The notes below the pieces were generated by a model that was not told the DNA's origin, did not search any database, and worked only from the letters and a program-made list of their open reading frames with translations. The translations under genes were made by a program, and so were the position numbers. This document shows positions 33,158 to 36,216 of a stretch of 64,000 bases of DNA, in pieces. The first letter of the stretch is position 1. Every line of letters begins with the position of its first letter. Origin of the DNA: Chloroflexi bacterium 54-19 (lineage in GTDB: Bacteria; Chloroflexota; Chloroflexia; Chloroheliales; Chloroheliaceae); assembly GCA_001898225.1 (NCBI GenBank), contig MKTJ01000034.1:13871-77870 (forward strand), in the 5' to 3' direction.

Positions 33158-33175
33158 ATTCTTCTATTAATGTTT

Positions 33176-33210
33176 AGCGAGGATATTTTTATCTTCGCTT
33201 TTCTTTATTT
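33176..33210 (+). terminator. Rho-independent terminator after serA
   Basis: A 9-bp stem AGCGAGGAT/ATCTTCGCT (one G-U) has a 6-nt loop and is followed by TTTTCTTTATTT. It lies 19 nt after the serA stop. Confidence 0.6.
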
Positions 33211-33363
33211 ATATAAATACTTTATTTTGGGCAAATCTTCAGTCCCAATTAAAATGGGTCAACGTACTTTATTTAAAGAAGTATTAAGAAAACAACCTTT
33301 GATTTAGAATTTAAAGAGGTAAAGAATTTTATTAACCTTTTAAAATTCTTTTCACTATGACTC

Positions 33364-33392
33364 TTTACACCATGAAATTTCCAAGCTATAAT
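33364..33392 (+). promoter_or_regulatory. Near-consensus sigma70-type promoter of the AT-rich three-gene cassette
   Basis: The sequence is TTTACA (33364-33369), 17 nt, then TATAAT (33387-33392). It lies ~70 nt upstream of the first cassette ATG. Confidence 0.5.
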
Positions 33393-33462
33393 CAATTCAG
33401 GATAATTATCCGATGCCATTCGTGAATATCTGAGCAACCCAAGAAAAGGATACAATTCCCCA

Positions 33463-34209
33463 ATGGGTGAACAATATGCAAATCCTCCTTTAATTGAAGC
33501 CTTCTGTCAATTTAATTTTGAGCAAGACACTGATTGGGATGCTACAATGCCCGGTCTTGTTTTTAATCAACTAAAAGACGAAGGATTTACTAAAAAGAAG
33601 CAAGCCAACAAAATAGGTTTTGAAATCCAAGTTGTAGGGAATCAATCTAACCCACAACTTATACCCGTTGCGGATAGAGTTCAATTTTATAATGAGGAAG
33701 AAACGGCTTTATTCCAAGTTGGACCTTATTTCCTGGCAATAAATGTGTTAAAACCCTATCCTTCTTGGATTACTTTTAAGGATTTGATTAGTAAGGGTTT
33801 ACAAGCTTATCTAAATGTTACTGAAGCTAAAACTTTTAAGACCGTCTCTTTGAGATATATTAATGACTTTGAGTTTGAAGGAATAAATATTTCTCTTGAA
33901 AAAAATTTTGACTTCAGGCCTCATTTCCCCCAAGGATTTCCAGAAAATTATGGACCTTTCTTATTAGGTTCACAATTTAATTATGATGAAGGGCAAAATC
34001 AACTTCAAATACAGTTAACAACTGTAGAAAATGGTCCTGACAAGACAAAGTTAAGGCTTGATCTTGTGTATGCAACTCAGAACCTTGAAGGTCTTAAGTC
34101 TGAAGAAATATTGAACTGGTTAGAGCTTGCCCATGACCGAATCGAGTTTGGATTTGAACATTCCCTTAAAGAAGATTTAAAAAGAACATTTGGGATAAAG
34201 GAAGGTTAA
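33463..34209 (+). CDS. TIGR04255-like family protein (function unknown), cassette gene 1
   Basis: 248 aa. The N-terminal Y.NPPLIEAFCQFNF and the internal SLRYINDFEF fit my recollection of the sporadically distributed TIGR04255 family (PL.EV..E.RF ... LRYiN). The gene is low in GC. Confidence 0.65.
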   Translation: MGEQYANPPLIEAFCQFNFEQDTDWDATMPGLVFNQLKDEGFTKKKQANKIGFEIQVVGNQSNPQLIPVADRVQFYNEEETALFQVGPYFLAINVLKPYPSWITFKDLISKGLQAYLNVTEAKTFKTVSLRYINDFEFEGINISLEKNFDFRPHFPQGFPENYGPFLLGSQFNYDEGQNQLQIQLTTVENGPDKTKLRLDLVYATQNLEGLKSEEILNWLELAHDRIEFGFEHSLKEDLKRTFGIKEG

Positions 34210-34212
34210 ACT

Positions 34213-34773
34213 TTGGAGCGAAATAGCTATTTCCTTTTGGATTCTCCAAAACTCACAAATGAAGCCACAGTTTCGGAAGGTAGGACTCTGTTCAATCCAA
34301 ATAATTTTAAGAACCATAGAGGGGTTGAATTATTAAGAAATCTTGACACTTTGATTAGTGATGCAGCAATTTTAACAGGAAGAGAATCTAATATAGTACT
34401 TCAGGATTTGAGAAACGAGACAACATCGATTACCTATACAATACACCGAAAGCTTTCTGTAATAGACAAATTGAACTTTTCTTATAAAGAAAAAGAAAGG
34501 GTTATTGATTACCTAAAACAAAATACAGAACTCCTAGATTTAATTATTGAAAGTTATTCCGTGATAAGAAACCACTTTAGGTTTGACCCATTAACCCTAA
34601 AGTTACATTCCGATACGGAAACTGGGTACGAAGATTACCTTATTTTAACGATTTTAACTGGATTAAAGGCAACCGAGGCTATCAAAGAATTAGATAAGAT
34701 AGATGACGAATGGTGGCTAAATAATTTCCACCGCGCAAATGATAAACTTTCAATTGATTTGGTGTATAGATGA
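34213..34773 (+). CDS. Orphan hypothetical protein, cassette gene 2
   Basis: 186 aa. TTG start lies 3 nt after the gene 1 stop, with AAGGAAGG ~8 nt upstream. Its stop overlaps the gene 3 ATG (ATGA). I recognise no motif. Confidence 0.6.
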   Translation: MERNSYFLLDSPKLTNEATVSEGRTLFNPNNFKNHRGVELLRNLDTLISDAAILTGRESNIVLQDLRNETTSITYTIHRKLSVIDKLNFSYKEKERVIDYLKQNTELLDLIIESYSVIRNHFRFDPLTLKLHSDTETGYEDYLILTILTGLKATEAIKELDKIDDEWWLNNFHRANDKLSIDLVYR

Positions 34774-35210
34774 GTTTCGATTGGATAAATTATCTTAGTC
34801 TAGCAGAAGAGCTTTCAAAAACACCGAATGAAACGCCTAATAAAGAGGCGACATCTAGAGCCGCAATTAGTCGTGCTTATTATGCTGCTTTCAAGAAAGC
34901 AGAGGAGTTTGTTGTTAGAAGGGATGGCTTTGTAGTTCAAAAGCCAAAACCTAGAGGCAGTCGAAGCCAACAAGATAGTAACGAGGAAGAACAAAATCTG
35001 GGAAGTAGCCATGTAAGAGTAATTAGACAATTTACTAGGCAGGGTTCAAACCAATATCGTATCAAAATAGGGGTTACTTTACGAAGAATAAAACATCATC
35101 GTGAAAGTGCTGATTATGATGCTGATTATGACGGCAATATTGATGAAGCGCTAAACGAGACTTTAATTAAAGCAAAAGAAATAATTAGTAAGCTGAAAGT
35201 TGCAGTCTAA
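34770..35210 (+). CDS. HEPN-domain protein (putative RNase toxin/effector), cassette gene 3
   Basis: 146 aa. It has the N-terminal helix pair W.NYL.LAEEL...SRAAISRAYYAAFKKAEEFV, then GSSH..VI..F and LRRIKHHRESADYD (R-x4-H plus the R..ADY signature), and a C-terminal helix EAL...KAKEII.KL. This is the classic HEPN four-helix pattern. Confidence 0.7.
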   Translation: MSFDWINYLSLAEELSKTPNETPNKEATSRAAISRAYYAAFKKAEEFVVRRDGFVVQKPKPRGSRSQQDSNEEEQNLGSSHVRVIRQFTRQGSNQYRIKIGVTLRRIKHHRESADYDADYDGNIDEALNETLIKAKEIISKLKVAV

Positions 35211-35216
35211 GTAATT

Positions 35217-35259
35217 CAAGAAAAAGGCGCATTTCCCGCGAAAGGAGATGCGCCTTTTT
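35217..35259. terminator. Bidirectional intrinsic terminator between the cassette and the convergent Gly-rich protein gene
   Basis: An 11-bp stem GGCGCATTTCC/GGAGATGCGCC (one G-U) at 35226-35254 is flanked by an A-run on the left and a T-run on the right. Confidence 0.7.
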
Positions 35260-35274
35260 GTTCCTAAGAAAATC

Positions 35275-36216
35275 CTAGCTGAGCGTGATAGTGATTGCCT
35301 GGGGTGGCGCGTCGGTGGTAGCGGGCCGCGATACAATCGAGACATTCGCCCCTGCTTTCAGGTCGTCCGCAGTGCCTGCCGCCTGTTTTTCTAACACGGT
35401 GCTGTCGCTGAGGGTAGCGGTAATGGCCTGGCCGGTCGCGTCAGTGCCGGTGAGTTTGTTACCCTGCAAAGTGGCCTGCCGGATGATTACCCCACCATTG
35501 GCCCCACCAAAACCACCTGCTCCACCAAAGCCGCCCGCGTTGCCCCGGTTCGTACCGGTGCCGCCCGCTGCGGGAGTGCCATTAGCCCCCCTACCGCTCG
35601 CGCCAGGAGTGCCATTAGCCCCGGCCCGGCCACCAAAACCGCCGGTCCCGGCATTCCCACCACCAAAGGCGGTCACATCCACCACCATCAGGTTGGTGGC
35701 GGTATAGGTGCCGTCACTACCTTTGGTGCCGGTCAGGAGAACAATCGCGTTATTCCCCAGGGCGCTGCTGAAGTCGGCGGAAGCCAGCTTTTCGGTCTTG
35801 GTCACGCGGGCATTGCTGGCGTCGAACTGCTGGTCCTTGCCCGAAGCGTCCTTTACGGTCAAAATTTTGTTGCTGGTGTCGTAAGACGAAATGGTGCCGG
35901 TTACCGGGGCGGTGCGTTGAAACCCGCCCTGCCCACCTGTACCAGTCCCGGAAGCGCCGGTATTACCCTGGGCCTGTCCGCCCACGCCAGGCGTAGTGCT
36001 GGCACCAGTGCCGTTGTTTGTCGAAGGCGTAAAGGTTGGTATAGGGGTGGGTCGGGCCGCCCCCTGGCCCTGGTTGGCCTGGGCGGCTGCCGGAGCAGAC
36101 GTGGCCGCGCTGGTATTGTAAGGATTCGTAGCGGTAGCAACCGCCCAGCCGATAGCGACGGCAGCCCCGATTATAACCAGGGCAATAATTGTTTTAATAA
36201 GACCTTTGAAAGTCAT
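35275..36216 (-). CDS. Secreted or membrane-anchored Gly/Thr/Ala-rich protein with two small beta-rich domains
   Basis: An N-terminal TM/signal anchor is present (IIALVIIGAAVAIGWAV). Long low-complexity runs occur (GGFGGRAGANGTPGASGRGANGTPAAGG...GGFGGAGGFGGANGG). Two ordered segments read VTGTISSYD..NKILTVKD and ATLQGNKLTG.D..G..ITATLSD. Confidence 0.6.
   Translation of the reverse strand: MTFKGLIKTIIALVIIGAAVAIGWAVATATNPYNTSAATSAPAAAQANQGQGAARPTPIPTFTPSTNNGTGASTTPGVGGQAQGNTGASGTGTGGQGGFQRTAPVTGTISSYDTSNKILTVKDASGKDQQFDASNARVTKTEKLASADFSSALGNNAIVLLTGTKGSDGTYTATNLMVVDVTAFGGGNAGTGGFGGRAGANGTPGASGRGANGTPAAGGTGTNRGNAGGFGGAGGFGGANGGVIIRQATLQGNKLTGTDATGQAITATLSDSTVLEKQAAGTADDLKAGANVSIVSRPATTDAPPQAITITLS

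Follow-up and report, generated by a model that had tools for sequence, protein, structure and literature searches.

What is the three-gene operon of foreign composition that lies behind serA in Chloroflexi bacterium 54-19, and does it belong to any described toxin–antitoxin (TA) or defence system? We examined it within a 64,000-nucleotide stretch of contig MKTJ01000034.1 (the window; all positions below refer to it) and through its relatives in other genomes and metagenomes. A sequence-only reading had proposed a candidate toxin or defence cassette made of a TIGR04255-like gene, an orphan and a HEPN gene.

A self-contained operon of foreign composition

The segment at 33207–35259 has 34.4% G+C, compared with 60.1% in serA, 61.9% in the downstream gene and 55% in the whole window, and is the sole stretch of the window to stay below 45% G+C over about 2 kb. 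The 60-nt line counts that had drawn attention to it (about 35% against about 62%) held on recounting, at 35.0% inside the segment and 61.7% in serA. At the left edge, G+C drops from about 60% to about 30% at the serA terminator (33176–33210, forward strand), a 10-pair stem-loop (33176–33199) followed by a T-run. The right edge is a bidirectional terminator common to the convergent downstream gene (35218–35262), an inverted repeat between an A-run and a T-run, with 19-nt arms that are 89% complementary and 7 nt apart (CAAGAAAAAGGCGCATTTCCCGCGAAAGGAGATGCGCCTTTTTGTT); it is absent from the list returned by a simple terminator scan. Terminators at both ends, as first proposed, were thereby confirmed.

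The near-consensus promoter that had been claimed fared less evenly. Its sequence and position stood: TTTACA-N17-TATAAT (33364–33392, forward strand) agrees with the consensus at 11 of 12 positions, lies about 70 nt 5′ of gene 1 and is the best-scoring promoter-like site of the region. However, such sites are no commoner in the AT-rich stretch than in shuffled sequence (8 observed, 6.9 ± 2.3 expected), so that this one is a plausible but unproven promoter.

Three genes fill the segment on the forward strand. Gene 1 (33463–34209) encodes 248 amino acids (aa). Its TAA stop is followed after 3 nt by the TTG start of gene 2 (34213–34773, 186 aa), which AAGGAAGG precedes; N-terminal residues conserved in a second locus (L002) support this start. 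Gene 2 comprises a poorly conserved, S/T/N-rich N-terminal extension (approximately residues 1–73; 34213–34431) and a C-terminal domain that we call X (approximately residues 74–186; 34432–34773). A 4-nt ATGA stop/start overlap joins it to gene 3 (34770–35210, 146 aa), and the tight packing described earlier, with junctions of 3 and −4 nt, is therefore real. The remaining open reading frames (ORFs) of at least 40 aa in the cassette include none able to encode a nucleotidyltransferase (NTase).

No integrase or transposase was found among the neighbouring called genes (polA, serA, a ThiF-family gene and a hydrolase), no tRNA within 9 kb on either side and no convincing direct repeat at the segment edges, in agreement with the sequence-only reading. 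All contigs with the identical serA also have the cassette. Together, these data identify the segment as a self-contained, compositionally foreign three-gene operon. It was probably acquired horizontally; across 56 related loci, cassette G+C lies more than 5 points below that of its own flanks in 41.

Gene 3 encodes a HEPN protein with a predicted non-canonical active site

Gene 3 has 146 homologues, many of them named UPF0332 or HEPN. The gene 3 protein alone reaches no Pfam threshold, but among 25 aligned members of its family 16 match PF05168 (best E = 3.3 × 10^−8), and the family profile finds PDB entries 9xbd (E = 1.9 × 10^−8), 36ht, the retron-Kva2 HEPN (E = 0.009), and 2hsb, AF0298 (E = 0.03). 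By this transitive homology, gene 3 can be assigned at family level to the PF05168/UPF0332, AF0298-like HEPN clade, in keeping with the HEPN assignment made initially. The gene 3 subfamily also has features of its own: a conserved N-terminus, MSFDW..YL, and, at residues 57–80 of the window protein, an inserted charged stretch of roughly 20 aa, absent from most family members.

The residues first proposed as its signature, R105-x4-H110, did not survive alignment. Neither is conserved in the family. Across 25 diverse sequences the invariant residues are R30, S34, R35, Y37, Y38, H81, R111, D115 and Y116. The histidine of the canonical Rx4-6H motif is not conserved among these members; D115 and Y116 occupy its region, giving the motif R111-x3-D115-Y116 (R111-E-S-A-D-Y) with no conserved histidine inside it. 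Instead, a second conserved histidine, H81, lies N-terminal to R111 (predicted active-site codons at 35010–35012 and 35100–35102, respectively), as in alternative HEPN active sites. In the alignment with the retron-Kva2 HEPN, a tRNase, H81 and R111 correspond to its validated catalytic pair H64 and R122, and Y37/Y38 to Y41/Y42, which contact the RNA. The conserved set matches the non-canonical active-site arrangement known from AF0298-type and retron type IX HEPNs. An alternative active site had been predicted for the AF0298 clade (Anantharaman et al. 2013, PMC3710099), and the H64A/R122A form of the retron-Kva2 HEPN serves as a catalytically dead control; the synthetic triggers used there induce RNA fragments with the wild-type protein alone (PMC13405049).

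X is a domain from a large family, with a new predicted fold

Gene 2 had been taken for an orphan; this proved wrong, as the X family comprises 1,663 cluster representatives at E ≤ 1 × 10^−3. No Pfam, NCBIfam or PDB sequence relative was found for X, and gene 2 and 53 X-family members had no Pfam or NCBIfam match to an NTase. The AlphaFold2 (AF2) model of X is confident (pLDDT 96, pTM 0.86), with the N-terminal extension of gene 2 modelled at low confidence. Foldseek comparison of the X model with the PDB returned no match at E ≤ 1 × 10^−3 (TM ≤ 0.43) and no nucleotidyltransferase in the best 50 matches listed; against BFVD, a phage nucleotidyltransferase-domain protein appeared at rank 10 (E = 0.064, TM 0.33). 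We considered whether X might be a minimal nucleotidyltransferase (MNT) and rejected this, as it has no NTase fold, motif or family match. The absence of the classical MNT partner, which the sequence-only reading had remarked on, therefore holds: neither gene 2 nor the X family matches an NTase, and no other ORF fits. X is, on the evidence of the model, a new α/β fold, uncurated in the libraries, in the place normally held by an MNT antitoxin.

Within the close family, E113, R119, F122, D164, W167, W168 and K178 are invariant. Type II antitoxins mostly carry a DNA-binding domain; unlike them, gene 2 has no detectable helix–turn–helix, ribbon–helix–helix or AbrB-type domain, which leaves autoregulation unaccounted for.

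X–HEPN is an invariant core and TIGR04255 an accessory first gene

We surveyed loci from a HEPN-motif seed, taking the best 80 metagenomic loci by similarity to the gene 3 protein. X lay directly upstream of the HEPN gene on the same strand in all 80, and within the surveyed and related loci each of 100 X ORFs was followed by a HEPN gene. Given this linkage, the core is an X–HEPN pair that resembles a TA module. Some loci contain arrays of as many as five tandem pairs. The layout is that of type II TA systems: co-oriented, overlapping small genes that strictly co-occur, with lower G+C, tandem arrays and a plasmid copy. The last is a pair on a conjugative Gloeothece plasmid, where it adjoins the replication gene; another pair is found in Nostoc sphaeroides.

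The identity of gene 1 was borne out by a full-length match to NCBIfam TIGR04255 (positions 1–252 of 252; E = 7.5 × 10^−35; 120.9 bits, with a cut-off of 30). Gene 1 has no Pfam match at E ≤ 1 and no PADLOC or PHROG relative, its profile finds no PDB chain at E < 0.6, and the term TIGR04255 is absent from the literature searched. In its family P9, E12, Y99, W102, A223 and F231 are invariant, and conservation reaches at least 90% at Y5, P8, E16, F42, Q85, P98, F105, R131, Y132, N134 and H224.

Dereplication left 22 triads, 28 dyads without TIGR04255 and 17 loci that could not be scored. The three genes had been presented as one unit: the triad does recur, with TIGR04255 directly upstream of X–HEPN in 22 of the 50 scorable loci, but it is not obligate, the other 28 being dyads. 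X–HEPN is therefore the invariant core, and TIGR04255 an accessory first gene. The module recurs across bacterial phyla; the 22 triads include those of the Thermus brockianus plasmid pTB1 and of an Acidobacteriota metagenome-assembled genome, and one triad and one dyad are on IMG/VR viral contigs. Across triads the three proteins diverge in step, their pairwise identities being correlated (Spearman 0.57–0.75), most strongly for X and TIGR04255 (0.75).

In triads, the junction between gene 1 and X is mostly 0–20 nt or overlapping, with the Shine–Dalgarno sequence inside gene 1, and 30–156 aa separate the TIGR04255 stop from the X core (median 70, 22 triads). Every triad (n = 22) has an X extension of at least 26 aa, the shortest being that of locus L088, which has 26 aa when counted from its first start codon. 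For 11 of 26 dyads an extension longer than 23 aa is impossible, although dyad start codons are uncertain, with upper bounds of up to 135 aa, and the contrast in length is blurred accordingly. The closest dyad, L012, has an X that is 65% identical to the window X, begins at the equivalent of gene 2 residue 59 and lacks both the extension and TIGR04255; its own TTGACA-N17-TATAAT lies upstream of X. In a further locus (P0235), the first ~21 TIGR04255 residues are joined in frame to X, in what looks like a deletion scar.

Relation to known systems

The cassette matched no named system in Pfam or PHROGs, and PADLOC-DB v2 and the literature searched likewise yielded none. In PADLOC-DB v2.0.0, genes 1 and 2 had no match and gene 3 had a weak match to HEPN_IX (E = 0.01); homologues from other loci behaved in the same way. 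The earlier statement that no described system has this gene composition can be upheld for these sources, and the HEPN module with an X partner and an optional TIGR04255 gene is new to them, HEPN toxins themselves being known.

Type VII HEPN–MNT (HepT/MntA) systems share with the cassette a small HEPN gene that stands second in a two-gene operon, overlapped by a small partner gene in the antitoxin position; both are also abundant, horizontally mobile and sometimes arranged in tandem arrays, and both HEPNs have a conserved tyrosine near the catalytic arginine. They differ in that X is not an MNT, that the window HEPN is of PF05168/AF0298 type with a split H...R pair whereas HepT is of DUF86 type with Rx4HxY, and that X–HEPN loci often have TIGR04255 as a third gene. 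Neither an adjacent MNT of polymerase-β fold with G-S...DxD nor a toxin with the Rx4HxY motif is present in the cassette.

Retron-Kva2, a type IX retron, provides the closest characterised HEPN by profile search, with H64/R122 in the place of H81/R111 and an RNA-contacting YY motif in common, and its HEPN is a dimeric toxic RNase that partner components keep inactive (PMC13405049). The sequence similarity is weak, however (profile E = 0.009), and the cassette lacks a reverse transcriptase, an ncRNA and a winged-helix protein: none of the three ORFs is either protein by Pfam, and the Rfam search gave no family above its gathering score. X, and not an msDNA ribonucleoprotein as in the retron, would be the sequestering partner. 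The AF0298/UPF0332 HEPN-T clade (PF05168; 2hsb, 9xbd) is the same sequence family as gene 3, with the SRAYYA helix motif and a conserved histidine N-terminal to R-x-x-x-D-Y in place of the canonical one; the window subfamily differs in its MSFDW..YL N-terminus and its strict linkage to X. Precedents for HEPN toxins with upstream non-MNT partners exist in ParA/Soj–HEPN (MAE_18760) dyads and RnlAB-type systems (PMC3710099), but the partners there come from families with no relation to X, and the HEPNs from other clades.

In the tripartite toxin–antitoxin–chaperone (TAC) systems of Mycobacterium tuberculosis the third gene is a SecB-like chaperone. The resemblance would be one of logic only, a third gene accompanied by a poorly structured antitoxin extension that occurs only alongside it. 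TIGR04255 matched no Pfam family or PDB chain (SecB profiles were not compared directly), is the first gene rather than the last, and accompanies an antitoxin extension that is N-terminal in the window.

A predicted TA-like core with an optional third component

On balance, we consider it probable that the cassette is a horizontally acquired operon with a TA-like X–HEPN core, in which the HEPN RNase is the toxin, X the antitoxin and TIGR04255 an optional third component. HEPN RNases act as dimers, and we infer that gene 3 is toxic in this form, with an active site that H81 and R111 compose across the dimer interface and with Y37/Y38 contacting RNA; by analogy with retron-Kva2, tRNA would be a plausible substrate. 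Gene 2 is translationally coupled to gene 3, and direct binding (type II-like), not AMPylation (type VII-like), is the most probable way in which X would neutralise the HEPN. Gene 1 is in turn translationally coupled to gene 2; as a working model, TIGR04255 would act through the disordered N-terminal extension of X, either stabilising or chaperoning the antitoxin, or sensing a trigger and controlling when the antitoxin frees the RNase; toxin release would then be conditional, for example on phage infection or stress.

A dedicated anti-phage role is possible, if rather doubtful: the cassette would be an abortive-infection system and not an addiction or stress TA module, with TIGR04255 sensing a phage component and acting on the X extension to free the HEPN RNase and arrest translation. 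This reading overlaps with the TA-like one, the main differences being the biological role and the sensor function given to TIGR04255. The nearest characterised relative of the HEPN, the retron-Kva2 effector, belongs to a defence system, which speaks for this reading, as do the weak PADLOC HEPN_IX matches, the triad and dyad on IMG/VR viral contigs and the neighbours of some triads (VapBC, a DNA methylase and cas6 on pTB1; in the Acidobacteriota genome, a methylase-like fragment on one side and a 926-aa helicase-like ORF on the other). In Pantoea, TIGR04255 is also the first gene of another three-gene cassette, which occupies sites where prophages classically carry accessory genes: between lysis genes and terminase, and beside an integrase. 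Yet a defence-island setting was not evident. Among the 126 nearest flanking ORFs of dereplicated loci, a census with no baseline for comparison, housekeeping families dominate and a handful match defence models (occasional restriction–modification, Hma, DRT and Thoeris), so that context gives no support for a defence role; 50,697 phage genomes gave no matches, and genes 1 and 2 match no PADLOC model. Dyads are, moreover, at least as common as triads, so that the module does not depend on a dedicated sensor. It is quite unlikely that the HEPN is no toxin at all and instead a non-catalytic RNA- or nucleotide-binding subunit of a small regulatory or RNA-handling complex, with or without TIGR04255. 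The absence of the Rx4-6H histidine, with D115/Y116 in its region, would suit such a complex, as would the stable presence of the cassette with the identical serA and the existence of MNT-linked HEPNs that lack conserved candidate active-site residues (PMC3710099). Against it, H81 and R111 are invariant in 25 diverse members and align with the residues whose mutation kills retron-Kva2 HEPN catalysis (PMC13405049); HEPN proteins without the motif proved effective toxins in a genome-scale screen, according to the 2013 census (PMC3710099); and the 4-nt overlap, tandem paralogous arrays, low G+C and plasmid replication gene neighbour are features that TA modules commonly show.

MNT antitoxins AMPylate a tyrosine beside the HepT active site, and X or TIGR04255 could in principle be an enzyme that modifies the HEPN covalently at Y116 in this type VII style. 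Y116 is invariant and close to the arginine of R111-E-S-A-D-Y, the deposited sequences of 9xbd and 9xbc differ in the aligned region by Y to F at its equivalent, hinting that the depositors probed this residue, and conserved polar positions of TIGR04255 (invariant E12, with E16, Q85, R131, Y132, N134 and H224) could form an active site. We nonetheless hold such modification to be very unlikely: X has no nucleotidyltransferase fold or motif, neither protein matches any catalytic family, and Y116 is equally invariant in dyads without TIGR04255, so that its conservation is independent of that gene. Hardly credible is the remaining idea that gene 1 is a neighbour of unrelated function and genes 2 and 3 alone form the unit. 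The predominance of dyads (28/50) and the autonomy of L012, with its own promoter, would fit this, but the comparative data already contradict it: TIGR04255 stands immediately upstream in 22 dereplicated loci of distant lineages at mostly short or overlapping junctions, co-diverges with X, always comes with the X extension and is linked to X by its N-terminus in the P0235 scar.

Beyond the TA-like reading itself, we entertain an unlikely extension of it, in which TIGR04255 would be a general plug-in control module for TA pairs, reading a short motif at the very N-terminus of a disordered antitoxin extension and gating antitoxin stability or toxin release in response to a trigger, for example phage infection. 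The result would be a new tripartite logic, SecB-TAC-like but built of unrelated parts, and the toxin so controlled would be a HEPN that cleaves tRNA and is restrained by an antitoxin of new fold. The motif in question, M-x-[Y/H]-hydrophobic-[S/T], is found at the X N-terminus in many triads and also on the middle proteins, unrelated to X, that the prophage cassettes of Pantoea encode.

A three-gene operon fills the AT-rich segment

The segment at 33207-35259 has a G+C content of 34.4%, against 60.1% in the serA flank and 61.9% in the convergent downstream gene, and a scan of the window found no other stretch of about 2 kb below 45%. Two 60-nt counts from an earlier sequence-only reading (about 35% inside the segment and 62% in serA) were recomputed as 35.0% and 61.7%. 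As that reading proposed, the segment is filled on the ORF listing by three plus-strand genes: gene 1 (33463-34209; 248 aa, TIGR04255), gene 2 (34213-34773; 186 aa, TTG start) and gene 3 (34770-35210; 146 aa, HEPN). Their layout is that of an operon, with both junctions as first described: TAA, 3 nt and a TTG start with AAGGAAGG upstream between genes 1 and 2, and an ATGA stop/start overlap between genes 2 and 3. Both claimed terminators were found: a terminator scan recovered that of serA (33176-33199 plus a T-run), and an inverted repeat with 19-nt arms and A- and T-runs either side (35218-35262) forms the right end of the segment. The sequence read as the cassette's own promoter, TTTACA-N17-TATAAT at 33364-33392, was likewise recovered by scanning (11 of 12 consensus positions), but such sites are no commoner in the segment than in shuffled sequence (8 versus 6.9 ± 2.3).

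No tRNA gene lies within 9 kb on either side of the cassette, no recombinase or integrase is found among the neighbouring genes and no meaningful direct repeat flanks the segment edges, in agreement with the earlier reading; mobile-element boundaries were rejected on these grounds. An Rfam search gave no family at threshold. The suggested comparison with sister strains yielded no cassette-free strain: the cassette is present on all public contigs encoding an identical SerA, and the comparison revealed no empty site.

A 45-aa ORF (33170-33307, plus strand) called in some public annotations of the contig is probably a spurious gene, since it overlaps both the serA terminator and the leader of the AT-rich segment. 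The 313-aa product of the convergent downstream gene (35275-36216, minus strand) has no Pfam family on record; it is hydrophobic at its N-terminus and contains long low-complexity runs rich in Gly, Ala and Thr (GGFGG repeats).

Gene 3 is a HEPN protein with a predicted split active site

Gene 3 has 146 detectable homologues, many of them named UPF0332 or HEPN. The window protein by itself has no Pfam match; 16 of 25 aligned relatives match PF05168, and the family profile matches PDB entries 9xbd and 9xbc ('HEPN domain-containing protein', E = 2e-8), the retron-Kva2 HEPN (E = 0.009) and AF0298/2hsb (E = 0.03), bearing out the HEPN assignment first made by eye. Literature searches found no publication behind 9xbd and 9xbc, and no paper on HEPN with UPF0332 or COG1895.

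R105 and H110, put forward earlier as the HEPN signature, vary freely in the family alignment, where the invariant polar residues are R30, S34, R35, Y37, Y38, H81, R111, D115 and Y116. In the AF0298-type HEPN-T clade the motif histidine is absent, and an alternative active site pairs the basic residue of the motif with another conserved histidine that precedes it in the sequence (Anantharaman et al., PMC3710099); conservation in the gene 3 family fits this pattern. On HMMER alignment, H81, R111 and Y37/Y38 correspond to H64, R122 and Y41/Y42 of the retron-Kva2 HEPN, whose active site consists of H64 and R122 contributed by two monomers and whose Y40-42 are placed to engage RNA (PMC13405049). 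Because these residues align, we consider a predicted RNase site, other than the one first proposed, to be well grounded in gene 3. The alignments establish the family as HEPN, with a conserved, predicted split active site matching that of a validated tRNase.

Directly before the predicted catalytic H81, residues 57-80 (window 34938-35009) form an insertion of some 20 aa, KPKPRGSRSQQDSNEEEQNLGSS, that is charged and probably disordered. It is confined to the closest relatives; most family members are about 125 aa long and lack it. A collection search with the window HEPN gave no plasmid or phage match, and one with a typical family member gave four plasmid records.

Gene 2 carries a widespread C-terminal domain

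Gene 2 had been taken for an orphan, and a word-index search found just four relatives. That view was overturned when HMMER was run exhaustively against 1.84 billion cluster representatives: 1,663 relatives reached E <= 1e-3, 198 of them E <= 1e-10, and every one aligned to the C-terminal ~100 residues of gene 2. This domain of about 110 aa, here called X, is always C-terminal in its relatives, proteins of 99-297 aa labelled 'hypothetical protein' in public sources. Searches with 53 members found no match in Pfam and none in NCBIfam except one fusion artefact, and the X profile matched no PDB sequence.

AlphaFold2 on full-length gene 2 with a 4-sequence alignment gave an unusable model (pLDDT 39); X remodelled from 53 sequences reached pLDDT 96 and pTM 0.86, with a predicted alpha-beta-alpha-alpha-beta-beta-alpha-beta topology. 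Foldseek of this model against the PDB returned nothing at E <= 1e-3; the best TM-scores, about 0.4, were to OsmC/Ohr and tautomerase-like proteins, and there was no nucleotidyltransferase among the matches listed. In BFVD, one unnamed viral protein shares the modelled fold (TM about 0.7). On the profile, AlphaFold2 and Foldseek results, X is a widespread, uncurated domain without a characterised structural relative.

The reported absence of a minimal nucleotidyltransferase (MNT) partner stood, as X shows no nucleotidyltransferase match in sequence or structure. A degenerate or cryptic MNT was rejected, there being no such sequence match and the confident model having no significant PDB neighbour; profile and model together argue firmly that X is not a nucleotidyltransferase.

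X and HEPN are strictly adjacent, and TIGR04255 joins them repeatedly

Among close gene 3 homologues, L002 and L011 are full TIGR04255-X-HEPN triads, and L001, L012 and L013 are pairs in which a 115-129-aa protein, aligning to the C-terminal two-thirds of gene 2, overlaps the HEPN start. Metagenomic loci were collected via the conserved HEPN peptide R[AT]AISRAYY, the 80 most similar to the window protein being retained. An X ORF lies immediately 5' of HEPN on the same strand in 80/80, and HEPN is the next ORF after X for 100 of 100 X ORFs in these and related loci. The two genes are strictly adjacent and overlapping; that HEPN implies X is well supported for this HEPN subfamily, and X implies HEPN within loci collected through HEPN. 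The Nostoc sphaeroides chromosome carries the pair too, as does a conjugative plasmid of Gloeothece citriformis, where it adjoins the replication gene. Tandem arrays hold two to five pairs. L062 (1193-5105) has five in succession on one strand, diverged paralogues that group together on the HEPN tree; arrays also lie at L049-L053, L041/L042 and L054, and several contigs other than L062 carry two pairs.

Dereplication at 90% HEPN identity left 67 pairs. Of these, 22 are triads, 28 are dyads that lack TIGR04255 although 1.2 kb or more of sequence precedes them, and 17 could be assigned to neither class. A sizeable minority of loci has TIGR04255 directly before X, so the triad recurs, the point that the earlier reading had asked to be checked, but the 28 dyads make it non-obligate. 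Triads are spread over distant lineages and include one on Thermus brockianus plasmid pTB1 (its X-like gene listed as a hypothetical protein), one in an Acidobacteriota MAG and one on IMG/VR contig L098. Their TIGR04255-to-X junctions are mostly 0-20 nt or overlapping, with a Shine-Dalgarno sequence within the end of gene 1, and their three proteins co-diverge (Spearman 0.57-0.75, highest for X versus TIGR04255). Triads and dyads are intermixed on the HEPN tree, with 12 inferred changes versus 16.5 ± 1.9 under shuffled labels. Gain or loss of TIGR04255 has hence been a repeated event, although the pattern retains some clade structure.

The pTB1 locus holds a clear 130-aa HEPN ORF with a GTG start (L014:6303-6695; plasmid record 201170-201562, minus strand; MAFDWEEYL...SRAYYAAF...RNDCDYD) that abuts the annotated X homologue. 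The plasmid gene table used does not list this ORF, perhaps because it was never annotated, perhaps simply because that table is incomplete.

TIGR04255 is tied to an extension on X

Gene 1 matches the TIGR04255 HMM over its full length (E = 7.5e-35), and the resemblance noted earlier is, by this profile match, unambiguous membership. TIGR04255 has no match in Pfam, PADLOC or PDB sequences, and its sole PHROG match was a weak one, from a homologue to one PHROG of unknown function. Profiles of 4 and 22 sequences found no solved-structure relative, hhalign of the two halves revealed no internal duplication, and kinship between X and the C-terminal half was rejected (BLAST E about 0.07; profile-profile probability 1.2%). 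No paper naming TIGR04255, CHP04255 or IPR026349 was found in the searchable literature. A collection search with gene 1 matched two plasmids and no phage, and a TIGR04255 search of genome contigs recovered one locus. Gene 1 contains a 19-nt direct repeat in three copies (33508-33526, 33682-33700, 33973-33991; 79-84% identity), each encoding Q-F-(N/Y)-x-(E/D)-E; these may be chance in AT-rich coding sequence, or repeated TIGR04255 structural elements.

The extension comprises about residues 1-73 of gene 2. In triads, 30-156 aa (median 70) lie between the TIGR04255 stop and the X core, with 26 aa ahead of the core in triad L088 counted from the first start codon; in dyads, the longest possible ORF leaves <=23 aa ahead of the core in 11/26. 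L012, the window's nearest dyad relative (X core 65% identical; HEPN 65% over the portion present), starts X at the equivalent of gene 2 residue 59 and has its own TTGACA-N17-TATAAT promoter and no trace of TIGR04255; its cassette is likewise an insert, with 37% G+C against 60% in the gene before it. The extension is weakly conserved and S-, T-, N-, P- and Q-rich. By inspection, its tip in triad middle proteins is often M-x-[Y/H]-hydrophobic-[S/T], which could be a short motif common to TIGR04255-led middle proteins. Examples are MTYSTN, MLYIST and MPYLAN; the window reads ..NSYFLLDS (34213-34245) and a Pantoea cassette, described below, MEYAFSS.

Protein P0235 has the look of a deletion scar, its X following in frame on the first ~21 TIGR04255 residues. 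P0167 fuses a HEPN N-terminus (MSFDWLQYL...) to X, and P0127 is a tandem X-X fusion; all three appear to have arisen from triads and tandem arrays by deletion or recombination.

The cassettes are scattered and low in G+C

The 126 nearest flanking ORFs of the dereplicated loci, scanned with Pfam and PADLOC, were mostly of housekeeping families, and the defence-island context that the earlier reading had wanted checked was rejected on this aggregate. Occasional matches (raw counts, no baseline) were to type I/III R-M, HmaC, DRT, ThsB and HEC-06. Individual triads do have defence genes as neighbours: the pTB1 triad adjoins VapBC, a methylase and cas6; the Acidobacteriota triad has a methylase-like fragment on one side and a large helicase-like ORF on the other, identities inferred from sequence appearance. 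Cassettes lie more than 5 G+C points below their flanks in 41/56 loci (median -7 points), that of the window, at -22 points, being among the most extreme surveyed. This context fits scattered, horizontally acquired toxin-antitoxin (TA)-like modules. Neither gene 1 nor gene 2 has a model in PADLOC-DB v2, and no description of the cassette was found in the searchable literature, in line with the earlier statement that no described system has this composition.

A predicted HEPN module with a non-MNT keeper

Few toxins or effectors are commoner in prokaryotic conflict systems than HEPN RNases, which are canonically kept by the MNT nucleotidyltransferase. We consider it probable that X-HEPN is a TA-like module with TIGR04255 as an accessory. 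The HEPN dimer would act as an RNase toxin, and X would neutralise it by binding, like a type II antitoxin, rather than by AMPylation. TIGR04255 might use the X extension to stabilise, chaperone or sense, making toxin release conditional; we hold any specific role for it with much less confidence than the core reading.

A dedicated abortive-infection system with TIGR04255 as the sensor overlaps this explanation and is possible, if doubtful; the flanks surveyed are mostly housekeeping. A non-toxic RNA-binding complex is unlikely beside a predicted site matching a validated tRNase. That X or TIGR04255 covalently modifies Y116, which is invariant in the family, seems quite improbable. Least credible is gene 1 as an unrelated neighbour: dyads do lack it, but the comparative data contradict this, the TIGR04255 linkage being recurrent, co-diverging and tied to the X extension.

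The TA-like module is predicted to work as other HEPN TA pairs do, but it has neither the MNT nor the Rx4HxY motif that define HEPN-MNT (type VII). Its active site is of the type seen in the retron type IX HEPN, but the cassette lacks both reverse transcriptase and ncRNA; it resembles TAC systems in logic only. New TA and defence modules are frequently reported. The present one, HEPN-based and of TA or defence type, is solid as a finding, and both its keeper family and its accessory component are new. A whole HEPN subfamily would be kept by a large non-MNT family unnamed in Pfam and NCBIfam, its fold confidently predicted and with no solved analogue, and a keeper other than MNT implies a different neutralisation mechanism. 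TIGR04255, until now uncharacterised, gains its first functional context as the lead gene of three-gene cassettes, with a tie to the extension on the middle protein. With three genes in about 1.8 kb, the system is compact and open to direct testing, and its natural two- and three-gene versions at 65% identity form a ready-made deletion series. Once it is recognised, gene pairs now listed by the thousand as 'hypothetical protein / HEPN domain-containing protein' would be better annotated, and TA and defence-finder databases could gain one system.

Related cassettes

More distant HEPN relatives on IMG/VR contigs (L100:3210-3995, L103:3229-3999, L106:3184-3999, L105:2581-4351) likewise lack an MNT, and a 255-271-aa protein overlaps the HEPN start. 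Partners at these four loci have no significant similarity to X or TIGR04255. L105, with the order 286 aa, 181 aa, HEPN, resembles a diverged triad; its 286-aa protein matches TIGR04255 marginally (E = 0.01, probability 4%).

A second, conserved TIGR04255-led triad (266 aa, TIGR04255; 189 aa; 149 aa) occurs in a prophage region on a Pantoea sp. Lij88 plasmid (L015:5001-6849) and on two IMG/VR contigs (L109:2075-3923, L110:1-1850), between lysis genes and terminase or beside an integrase; it was not found in the E. coli genomes searched. Its 189-aa and 149-aa proteins have no detectable similarity to X or HEPN. The 189-aa protein has a weak PADLOC PDC-M32A match (E = 4e-4). This middle protein begins MEYAFSS or MNYAISN. 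This one further cassette type is a hint that TIGR04255 serves as a reusable module, combined with more than one kind of downstream pair.
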